From positions 1-45,488 of the forward strand of contig DAIOUO010000001.1 in NCBI GenBank assembly GCA_036759485.1: DNA of 45,488 nucleotides, in the 5' to 3' direction. Positions 1 to 1,410 of the stretch are shown in pieces; positions within the stretch are counted from its first letter, which is position 1; each line of letters opens with the position of its first letter. Below the pieces are notes generated by a model. The model worked only from the letters and a program-made list of their open reading frames with translations, searched no databases and was not told where the DNA came from. This DNA is from Geminicoccaceae bacterium. Lineage in GTDB: Bacteria > Pseudomonadota > Alphaproteobacteria > Geminicoccales > Geminicoccaceae. The position numbers and the translations under genes were made by a program.

Positions 1-1410
1 GCCCGATGCCGCCGCTTCGGCGTCGTGGGCTCGGGCGAGGATCGAAACCGCTCGGTGGTAAGGGAGGCCACTCGCCGGAACGACCTCGCCCGAGGCGAGG
101 ACGAGCGACGCGTAAGGCGCGAGGTCGGCCACGAGCTCGAGCTTGGCCATGAGGCAGGCATCGAAGATCACGAGGTCGAGCGGTGCTTCCTCCTCGAGCC
201 CGTCGCGTAGAGCGGCGAGCAGCTCGTCGATGTCGAGCGCGTCCGCGGAACCGTCGTCGGTCGCGATCCGCGTGCCTGCGCCGTGGCCCCACAGGAGGAG
301 AGCGCGGCGCCGTGCCGGAAAGGTCGAGCGACCCCAACGAAGGAGCTCGCGCAAGAGCGCCGGATCCCCCGTGTTGCGCGGCCCGCGCGGCTCGACCACG
401 AGGCGGGGGGATTCGCCGGACGGCTCCGAAGAGGTCGCCGGCAACACGGCGAATCGGCCGCAGAGAGCCGCGTCGCGCGAATCGAGCTCGCCCGCCACGT
501 GGAGCCGATCGAGTTCGGGCGCCGCCGAGAGCTCCGCGAGGTCGGCCCGCAGCTCGCCCGCCAGATCGTTGTCGGCGGCCGCTAGGGTCAGCACCGCCCA
601 GCGGCGCATCGGCTGCCGGCCCAGGCCCGAGAGGCCCCCGCCGACCGCCGCGAATGACCGCCCGTCCGTCGCCGCCGCGAGCCGCCGACGCATCTCGGCC
701 AGCAGACGGCGGAACGGCGCCGTTCGGCTCAGGACGAAGCGCCTCGGGGGCGGGCCGGGCTCGCCGTGCAGCCGGGCGCGCAGCCGCCGCAGCAGGCGCG
801 CGGCATCGGCCCGCTTGGCGTCGACCATCGAGCGCCGCGCCCACCGTACGACGGCGTCCGCCCGCCGTGGCCCGACCGTCTCGCACAACACGGCCTCGAA
901 TGCCGCGCGCGTGCGTTCCGGATAGAAGCGGGCGGCGAGGGCGCGCGCGGCCGCCTCCGCTTCGCCGGCGCCGATCAGCCCGAGCCGCTCCAGGCGCGCG
1001 AGTGTGGCCCGGAGGTTCACCATGGGCTCGCTCAACGCCGGCCAGCCCAGTTCGGCCGGACCGTGCAGGAGCGCCACCTCGTCGTCGGCATCGAGGAGGC
1101 CGTCGCGGTAGGCGGCGAAGATCGTCCCCACCCCCTCCATGCCGAAGGGATGCAGCTCGGCCGCCCGCAACGCCCCCATGCTGGCGGCGCCGAGCACCGG
1201 GATGCCCGACTCGAGTGCCGCGAGTATCTCCTTGTGCCAGACCGCCGGCTCGTGGCCGAACACACCGTCGACGAGCCCGATCAGTCGTGCTCCCTCGCCG
1301 ACCGCGCGCAGCACGTCTCCTTGGGCGGCCGGCGGCAGCACGCGGATGCCGGGCAGCTCCAGGCGATGAAGGCGCGGGAAGCTCGGTCCGACGAACAGCA
1401 CGGCGCTCAC
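1..1410 (-). CDS. TfuA-like domain fused to a clostripain-like (peptidase C11) domain; partial, the C-terminus lies beyond the left window edge
   Basis: This minus-strand frame is open from 1410 to position 1 (470 codons) and is not in the supplied ORF track because it has no stop inside the window. GTG at 1410..1408 overlaps the YcaO TGA at 1409..1407. My translation starts [118 protein letters not shown], which matches TfuA hallmark stretches as I recall them. From about aa 266 it reads [26 protein letters not shown]...[12 protein letters not shown]...[26 protein letters not shown]. These match the C11 N-terminal motif and the His/Cys dyad motifs (His codon about 285..283, Cys codon about 156..154). 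Confidence 0.8.
   Translation of the reverse strand, partial: [470 protein letters not shown]

Follow-up and report, generated by a model that had tools for sequence, protein, structure and literature searches.

A TfuA–clostripain fusion and a repeat-bearing candidate precursor in a three-gene YcaO cassette of Geminicoccaceae

The window analyzed here is a 45,488-nt stretch of DNA from a Geminicoccaceae bacterium (contig DAIOUO010000001.1 of assembly GCA_036759485.1, positions 1 to 45,488). At its left edge, on the minus strand, lie three genes: a small open reading frame (ORF) with tandem repeats, a YcaO gene, and a gene in which a TfuA domain is joined to a clostripain-family (C11) cysteine peptidase domain. 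Pathways pairing YcaO with TfuA are a known type among ribosomally synthesized peptides that are post-translationally modified (RiPPs); the domain fusion, the precursor family, and the cytoplasmic C11 enzyme are new. The features are as follows, with the main evidence for each in parentheses.

1–1410, minus strand: TfuA-C11 fusion gene, first 470 codons (open frame; G+C content at third codon positions, GC3, 0.87; match to the homologue P0001)
766–1410, minus strand: TfuA domain, residues 1–215, with invariant SMGALR (PF07812, NF033432, 6xp8)
607–765, minus strand: Arg-rich interdomain linker, residues 216–268 (translation; low-confidence in the structural model)
1–606, minus strand: N-terminal half of the C11 domain, residues 269–470, with the catalytic residues (PF03415; Foldseek match to 9cip)
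283–285, minus strand: codon of the catalytic His376 in WGHG (aligns to the His of clostripain NHGGG)
154–162, minus strand: Asp417-Ala418-Cys419 of FDAC, in which Asp is the S1 residue and Cys is catalytic (identical to clostripain FDACLM)
1407–2612, minus strand: YcaO gene, 401 aa from a TTG start, its stop overlapping the fusion start (Pfam YcaO, E = 2.3e-72)
2621–2652, minus strand: hairpin with a 13-bp G+C stem and a 6-nt loop, between the precursor stop and YcaO (fold energy)
2657–3058, minus strand: candidate precursor gene, 133 aa, a leader of ~76 aa (2831–3058) followed by three 20-aa modules (translation, ribosome-binding site, homologues)
2671–2850, minus strand: three tandem 60-nt (20-codon) core repeats (60-nt spacing, 72% identity)
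2801–2818, 2741–2758, and 2681–2698, minus strand: module cores GGKQRF, GGKQRF, and AGKQRF (coordinates verified)

The fusion gene is missing from the ORF track supplied with the window, as an earlier, sequence-only reading had pointed out, and translation bears out the rest of its description: positions 1–1410 give 470 codons with zero stops, starting at a GTG laid over the YcaO stop. The GTG (1410–1408) and the YcaO TGA (1409–1407) share the sequence GTGA, an overlap consistent with translational coupling of YcaO and the fusion. The host genome is 72–74% G+C, and the ORF lists hold many overlapping long frames in such DNA. G+C content in the fusion frame is 0.81, 0.55, and 0.87 at codon positions 1, 2, and 3, and GC3 per 50-codon block remains between 0.74 and 0.94 throughout; this codon-position pattern and steadily high GC3 mark the frame as true coding sequence rather than a chance opening. 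The near-identical contig L001, with the same gene order, supplies the sequence to the left of position 1. There the gene is complete at 650 aa (P0001), with one residue different from the window's 470 codons, and the last 180 codons lie past the window edge. In P0001 the TfuA and C11 regions are joined without the stop or frameshift that would have made them two separate genes.

Residues 1 to about 215 had been read as TfuA, and the profile and fold comparisons agree. Pfam TfuA (PF07812) matches residues 48–167 over its entire profile (positions 1–119 of 119; E = 3.9e-44, 149.7 bits against a cutoff of 30), and the NCBIfam model NF033432 (TfuA-related) matches residues 3–211 of the fusion, the same residues that align end to end with Protein Data Bank (PDB) entry 6xp8 (phmmer, E = 9.4e-32). 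Foldseek also matches the modeled domain to 6xp8 (E = 4e-11, target TM-score 0.67). The motif SMGALR (S77–R82) is invariant in 20 of 20 aligned fusions. As an equivalog of the McrA system, NF033432 has a curated cutoff of 235.2 bits, and the domain scores below it, at 177.3. The YcaO partner expected next to a TfuA protein is present, in the window as in each of the 16 related loci. TfuA proteins of Proteobacteria are themselves mostly about 450 aa long, with a C-terminal extension of ~200 aa that has no Pfam annotation (P0025–P0120; P0031/P0028), and other TfuA fusions were also seen, to a nitroreductase domain (PF00881; P0045, P0119) and to an AhpC-TSA domain (PF00578; P0071).

The assignment of the region from about residue 266 onward to peptidase family C11 holds as well. 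Pfam Peptidase_C11 (PF03415) matches residues 339–463 of the window fragment (E = 2.7e-20, 73.7 bits against a cutoff of 25.8), and the NCBIfam clostripain model gives a weak match. In the homologue P0021, residues 271–636 cover positions 1–355 of the 359-position C11 profile, so the C-terminal 380 residues are all one C11 domain. The motifs singled out in the sequence-only reading, including the catalytic His and Cys, are present: phmmer aligns WGHGAGTR with NHGGGAR and FDACLM with FDACLM of clostripain (9cip), which places the dyad at His376 and Cys419 (nt 154–156). Two residues before the Cys is Asp417 (nt 160–162), which we take to be the S1 residue conferring specificity for Arg or Lys. 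C11 peptidases such as clostripain and PmC11 cut after Arg or Lys, and by its sequence the fused domain is probably Arg/Lys-specific too. Trp271, Asp280, Asn281, His376, Asp417, and Cys419 are invariant in the alignment of 20 fusions, in which mean column identity is 65%; His376 and Cys419 are also kept in the long variants described below and in stand-alone relatives. Arg381, five residues past His376, aligns to the Arg of clostripain NHGGGAR, is kept in 17 of the 20, and is a candidate autoprocessing site.

Foldseek searches with the C11 domain matched 9cip (E = 1.7e-15), 6mzo (E = 2.8e-14), and 6n9j (E = 5e-14). An AlphaFold2 model of the fusion (mean predicted local distance difference test score, pLDDT, 80.8) has the two expected domains, joined by a low-confidence linker in which pLDDT falls below 50 at residues 247–257. 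By every sequence and fold criterion tested, then, the fusion is a member of both the TfuA and the C11 families. Its N-terminus is the TfuA domain, with no signal peptide. Stand-alone C11 proteins of 376–380 aa (P0151, P0195; L091, 5244–7284) resemble the fused C11 domain over its full length (270–284 bits) and likewise have no obvious signal peptide; cytoplasmic C11 enzymes may be commoner than assumed. P0282 is a more distant stand-alone C11 protein; one of its neighbors is a protein with a transglutaminase core and another a radical SAM gene, a setting unrelated to YcaO. A protein search with an alignment of C11 alone missed both the long variants and the stand-alone relatives, and added only distant stand-alone C11 proteins.

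The joining of TfuA to Peptidase_C11 is not peculiar to this window: it is found in 20 clusters at 90% identity, of 614–651 aa and with both Pfam domains, drawn from NCBI, JGI, ENA, and Logan assemblies. These are mostly from Geminicoccaceae (Alphaproteobacteria), and include the complete 3.76-Mb chromosome of a Geminicoccaceae metagenome-assembled genome (MAG; AP024683.1) and a cultured isolate, Geminicoccus flavidas CPCC 101082 (L011), whose cassette is on NZ_WUJP01000821.1 and has the core GGKDKF. A metagenome scan with the C11 alignment gave at least two additional loci of this short type (L096 and L097). A profile of the 20 fusions was scored on ~15 billion proteins, clustered at 50% identity into 1.84 billion representatives; only five of these matched as one stretch over both domains. 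Three further representatives (P0140, P0142, and P0150; 825–854 aa) are long variants with a ~200-aa insert between TfuA and C11, at residues ~235–430; the other ~24,000 matches are ordinary TfuA or C11 proteins. Among the best 80 loci from species-representative genomes, at least two have the full fusion. The long variants keep WGHG, and their active site reads D-C-C. Their insert has no family match, and by BLASTP no significant similarity to the C-terminal extension of the 450-aa TfuA proteins. G+C content at their loci (L090, L093, L094) is 56–62%, which puts them in lineages other than Geminicoccaceae. The fusion is thus rare, yet present in at least two lineages and one cultured strain. 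A literature search (TfuA with clostripain, C11, or cysteine protease; thioamide with clostripain) turned up no account of the architecture in the papers searched.

The closest NCBIfam model to the YcaO protein is TIGR03266, for thioamidation of the McrA glycine, with a score of 182.1 bits against a cutoff of 365; the YcaO protein and the TfuA domain are relatives, not members, of the McrA-type equivalogs. The unit of small ORF, YcaO, and fusion recurs with differing flanks in Geminicoccaceae MAGs, the P0021 contig, L008, and L011, and also in the long-variant loci L090, L093, and L094; within Geminicoccaceae it is at a fixed chromosomal position. Outside Geminicoccaceae it is flanked by a Crp-family regulator (cNMP_binding plus HTH_Crp_2), by a guanylate-cyclase/tetratricopeptide-repeat (TPR) protein, or by both (L090, 3940–6302; L093, 4073–4711; L094, 1996–3708; and the P0021 contig), which suggests cyclic-nucleotide control of the cassette there. 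In the window, no Crp-family or guanylate-cyclase/TPR gene adjoins it.

The small ORF, overlooked in the sequence-only reading, lies directly upstream of YcaO, between it and an ATE-family gene. It has a GGAG ribosome-binding site before its ATG, and a GC3 of 0.90. Its homologues form only 17 clusters in a 5.8-billion-cluster database, all of 112–133 aa and without a Pfam domain; Pfam and NCBIfam scans of the precursors found no family, the best match being a non-significant one to ribosomal protein L2 (E = 0.1). The first ~75 residues, the presumed leader, are well conserved (G-x-L-x-R, F-x-P-L, RLPDDQQRG, LD...LKNA), and are followed in the short-variant precursors by two or three modules, all of which contain the invariant P-x-[GA]-G-K-x-[RK]-F. 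In 52 repeat units from 19 proteins, the Lys, the Arg or Lys two residues on, and the Phe after that are present in all 52; Pro is at −3 in 51, and Gly precedes the Lys in 50. In an AlphaFold2 model of the precursor (pLDDT 57.8, too low for a fold search), the leader is of moderate confidence and the modules are disordered.

The long-variant loci also have an ORF before YcaO, of 112–123 aa, with a leader homologous to the short type (hhalign probability 96.9%, E = 1.8e-10). These precursors have a single core, with the tails ...GAGKNHKPIIRFKGL, ...TKGNKPVIRFPRP, and ...SKGLKPVHRF, closing with K-P-[VI]-x-R-F and then zero to three residues; in L094 and L095, two independent samples, the protein ends exactly at RF (...SKGLKPVHRF, then stop). 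The only residues common to all cores of both types are the upstream Lys and the [RK]-F pair. A varying number (one, two, or three) of short conserved modules in a disordered tail behind a conserved leader is the hallmark of multi-core RiPP precursors, and the locus has the elements by which a YcaO-TfuA RiPP cluster is recognized: a small precursor gene lies beside YcaO-TfuA, its leader is conserved, and its core is variable or repeated. The 133-aa ORF is therefore likely a repeat-bearing RiPP precursor, and the substrate of the cassette.

The precursor family and the fusion go together. A hidden Markov model (HMM) of the leader matched 14 of 14 fusion loci with upstream DNA, and none of 78 loci with unfused TfuA; a C11 HMM found no separate C11 gene in those 78 loci (0 of 78). 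The leader was also absent from 79 metagenomic C11 loci without TfuA, among the matches listed. In the data reached, the association between precursor family and TfuA-C11 fusion is exclusive.

The gene structure, domain identities, conserved catalytic residues, precursor family, and exclusive co-occurrence are thus shown; from these we infer that a thioamide forms, where the precursor is cut, and what is released. The account we consider probable, if by a good deal less than certain, is that window positions 1–3058 (minus strand) are a minimal three-gene thioamide RiPP cassette in which the fused C11 domain attacks the conserved [RK]-F bond. The precursor's conserved, partly structured leader would dock on the enzymes, and its disordered tail would present the three modules. 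YcaO enzymes carry out ATP-dependent activation of backbone amides, and this one would use ATP to activate one such amide per module. The TfuA domain would bring sulfide equivalents to yield the thioamide, and their source would presumably be a thiocarboxylate of the ThiS type whose gene lies elsewhere. This step is suggested by what is known of the family: TfuA partners thioamide-forming YcaO enzymes and, with ThiS-type thiocarboxylates, supplies sulfide equivalents (PMC13063428). The tethered C11 domain (His376/Cys419 dyad, S1 Asp417) would attack the Arg/Lys-Phe bond in each module, with SPSGGKQRFAPG-type and SPSGGKQRFAPGLL peptides as its presumed substrates, and short thioamidated peptides with a C-terminal Arg or Lys would be released, much like thiovarsolin but with the protease built in. 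The sequence-only reading had proposed that fusing the YcaO partner to a protease couples modification and proteolytic maturation. That idea is strengthened by the repeat precursor, whose invariant Lys, Arg/Lys, and Phe suit an Arg/Lys-specific C11 enzyme; as to its second half, proteolysis of the precursor is still a proposal.

Several points weigh against this account. The step from genes and domains to product, thioamide, and cleavage is one of interpretation. Cutting solely at [RK]-F would leave module 1 on the leader, so that an extra N-terminal cut, or trimming, is needed. Most characterized C11 enzymes are secreted, and the fused one must work in the cytoplasm. The C11 enzymes known from RiPP pathways, LrcF and GelP, are transpeptidases, so leader removal is not the sole option. 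YcaO and TfuA score below the McrA equivalog cutoffs, so that thioamidation, though likely, is not assured. Across related loci the cassette is accompanied by no conserved transporter, immunity gene, or ThiS. The short-variant loci come mostly from one family, Geminicoccaceae, so that features they have in common are partly a matter of shared ancestry.

The nearest known parallel is the thiovarsolin system, in which VarA, VarY, and VarT of Streptomyces varsoviensis suffice to produce Ac-Ala-Pro(CS)-Arg from a repeated core and, as the authors note, the cluster lacks a protease of its own (PMC6511847). It has the same minimal set of repeat precursor, YcaO, and TfuA, repeat number there also varies among relatives, and thiovarsolin is a very short thioamidated peptide ending in Arg, as proposed here. 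It differs in that host peptidases are credited with release, TfuA is unfused, and the host is an actinobacterium; the precursor families are also unrelated, the core here being P-x-G-G-K-x-R-F behind a leader without a Pfam or NCBIfam match. The McrA thioglycine system of methanogens provides the top curated models for both proteins (TIGR03266 and NF033432) and the structure aligned end to end with the TfuA domain (6xp8), but its substrate is a large enzyme subunit rather than a small repeat peptide, and it has no peptidase domain. Other TfuA fusions likewise join TfuA to a component of its own pathway, but the partner is YcaO or a redox domain, never a peptidase: a tfuA-ycaO fusion is found in Burkholderia thailandensis, and a 2021 global survey of thioamidated RiPP clusters, which mentions tfuA-ycaO fusions as well as an S9 prolyl endopeptidase, makes no mention of C11 (PMC8120280). 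Clostripain (9cip), PmC11 (3uws/4yec), thetapain (6n9j), and 6mzo have the fold of the C11 domain (Foldseek E = 1.7e-15 to 1e-13, target TM-score 0.65–0.73), and clostripain and the Bacteroidales C11 enzymes have the His/Cys dyad, the FDAC with its S1 Asp, and the candidate Arg after GHG. Identity to them is only 13–18%, however, and whereas clostripain and the gut Bacteroidales enzymes are secreted general or toxin-activating proteases, the domain here has no signal peptide and is C-terminal to a cytoplasmic TfuA.

LrcF and GelP, from the pathways of the class V lasso peptides lariocidin B and gelatinamin A, are C11 enzymes that work in RiPP pathways. Their target is an Arg-X bond close to the C-terminus, with a conserved upstream Lys as acyl acceptor: the residue after Arg17 is removed and the Arg17 carbonyl joined to the N-epsilon of Lys2. 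Support for this is genetic in the case of LrcF and comes from in vitro reconstitution in that of GelP (PMC11451635; PMC13178200; PMC12070363). The fused domain might similarly be a transpeptidase, or macrocyclase. An acyl-enzyme would form at the Arg/Lys, Phe and everything downstream would be expelled, and the acyl group would pass to the epsilon-amine of the upstream Lys to give a thioamide-bearing Lys-to-Arg isopeptide ring. We think this unlikely, though worth serious attention. That Lys is invariant, in 52 of 52 short-type units and three of three long-type cores, and in the long type it sits before Pro (K-P-V-x-R-F). Lys-Pro is a poor cleavage site, so the long-type Lys is probably conserved for another reason. 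The lone Phe after Arg in L094 and L095 also recalls the single Gly removed by LrcF. On the other hand, the Lys might just as well be conserved for recognition by the enzyme or for binding a target, and its spacing to the Arg is unlike between the variants (i−2 versus i−4). The likeness drawn here to LrcF and GelP is at the level of the C11 family, and those enzymes are stand-alone proteins with signal peptides, periplasmic or extracellular and without a YcaO or TfuA link, that act on a pre-folded lasso, whereas the fused domain is cytoplasmic along with TfuA. None of the examined loci has lasso genes (B1/B2 peptidase, C cyclase); with the lack of a signal peptide, this places the fusion outside the lasso-type C11 group.

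A bolder extension of the transpeptidase idea, and a more doubtful one, is a new RiPP class in which a cytoplasmic TfuA-fused C11 transpeptidase turns each module into a thioamidated Lys(N-epsilon)-Arg(C=O) ring, under cyclic nucleotide monophosphate (cNMP)/Crp control in several lineages. If true, one polypeptide would be both thioamidation partner and macrocyclase, and the mode of control would suggest a signaling or physiological molecule over a classical antibiotic.

The C11 domain could also act elsewhere: on itself, at the linker or the GxR loop; on another protein such as a sulfur-carrier precursor; or in some regulatory or degradative role. Many other C11 enzymes self-cleave. Clostripain automaturation excises an internal loop, Arg181–Arg188 (PMC13178200), and the fusion has an Arg381 aligned with the Arg of clostripain NHGGGAR (17 of 20) as well as an Arg-rich linker (residues 216–268) modeled with low confidence. 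Self-processing would be compatible with precursor cleavage as well, and the long variants have no Arg after GHG. For a different substrate, no ThiS-like or other candidate gene is conserved nearby in related loci. Either form of the proposal leaves unexplained the strict co-occurrence with a precursor carrying K, R/K, and F, and we regard it as improbable.

Less probable again is that the 133-aa ORF encodes a small protein functional at full length, perhaps thioamidated in the manner of McrA and uL16, with structural or binding repeats. YcaO enzymes do thioamidate these two full-size proteins (PMC13063428), the cassette has no exporter, its fixed chromosomal position in Geminicoccaceae is like that of a housekeeping gene, and the leader is long and partly structured. 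Against this, module number varies (one, two, or three) in a disordered tail behind the leader, and the pathway comes with a fused protease domain of its own, its catalytic residues intact. An assembly artefact, whether a frameshift or misassembly of neighboring genes or a spurious GC-rich ORF, is effectively excluded, for although GC-rich genomes yield many long spurious ORFs and the fusion frame stays open upstream to position 2850, the same architecture runs uninterrupted through 20 clusters, a complete chromosome, and a cultured isolate, GC3 is ~0.87 throughout with conservation at the amino-acid level, and unrelated lineages of lower G+C content have a second architecture (TfuA-insert-C11).

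Release of the modified core in YcaO-TfuA RiPPs is usually unexplained. If the C11 domain does process the precursor, the fusion would be the first case found of a sulfur-delivery partner and a processing enzyme in one polypeptide, and a rare clostripain-family enzyme of the cytoplasm whose substrate is defined and genetically linked. The precursors would also give genome-mining tools a new family, for which there is no Pfam or NCBIfam model. With only three genes, a clean G-K-x-R-F motif, and a cultured host in Geminicoccus flavidas CPCC 101082, the system is a tractable one. Questions it raises include the proximity of TfuA to the substrate, the specificity of an intracellular C11 enzyme, and whether RiPP pathways use C11 transpeptidation more widely.

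The hairpin between the precursor stop and YcaO (2621–2652) has a perfect stem and a fold energy of −40.7 kcal/mol (z = −2.2), with no T-run after it. Hairpins occur in the equivalent place in L002, L005, and L009, with arms that are different yet complementary; the element may be an attenuator, stabilizer, or processing element tuning the ratio of precursor to enzymes. Between the ATE stop and the precursor start, at 3105–3140 (minus strand), is an AT-rich island, cttgactaatgtcctataataggccataagg, in a genome of 72% G+C. It has TTGACT and TATAAT hexamers 7 nt apart and a short AGGCC/GGCCT palindrome, and could be a promoter or regulatory site. A pattern scan for sigma-70 promoters and terminators on the minus strand around the cassette found nothing convincing.

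Neighboring genes were considered as cassette members and rejected. The ATE-family arginyl/leucyl-tRNA protein transferase gene (3132–4193, minus strand) adjoins the cassette in the Geminicoccaceae MAG clade alone, whereas L008, L011, the P0021 contig, and every long-variant locus lack it; downstream genes for a thiamine pyrophosphate (TPP) enzyme, EamA, ZnuA/ABC/FUR zinc functions, and a flavoprotein represent local synteny only. The ORF lists overcall some lengths: the ATE-family protein is ~253 aa in related annotations versus 353 aa listed, and ParE (4892–8686, minus strand) ~663 aa versus 1264 aa, an overextension of starts in GC-rich DNA. From parE to the ATE gene, at 4200–4900 (compare L001, 785–1594), are small conserved ORFs, two or three in number (74, 69, and 97 aa), that match no family and occur in this position throughout the Geminicoccaceae loci. 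Elsewhere the window has the look of ordinary chromosome. No ThiS, exporter or transporter, immunity candidate, or cassette-tied regulator was seen in the part sampled; genes sampled between 9147 and 45453 include glnA, an isochorismatase, a DEAD-box helicase, a GT2/GtrA glycosyltransferase, uvrA, a GidA/TrmFO-like gene, and parA.

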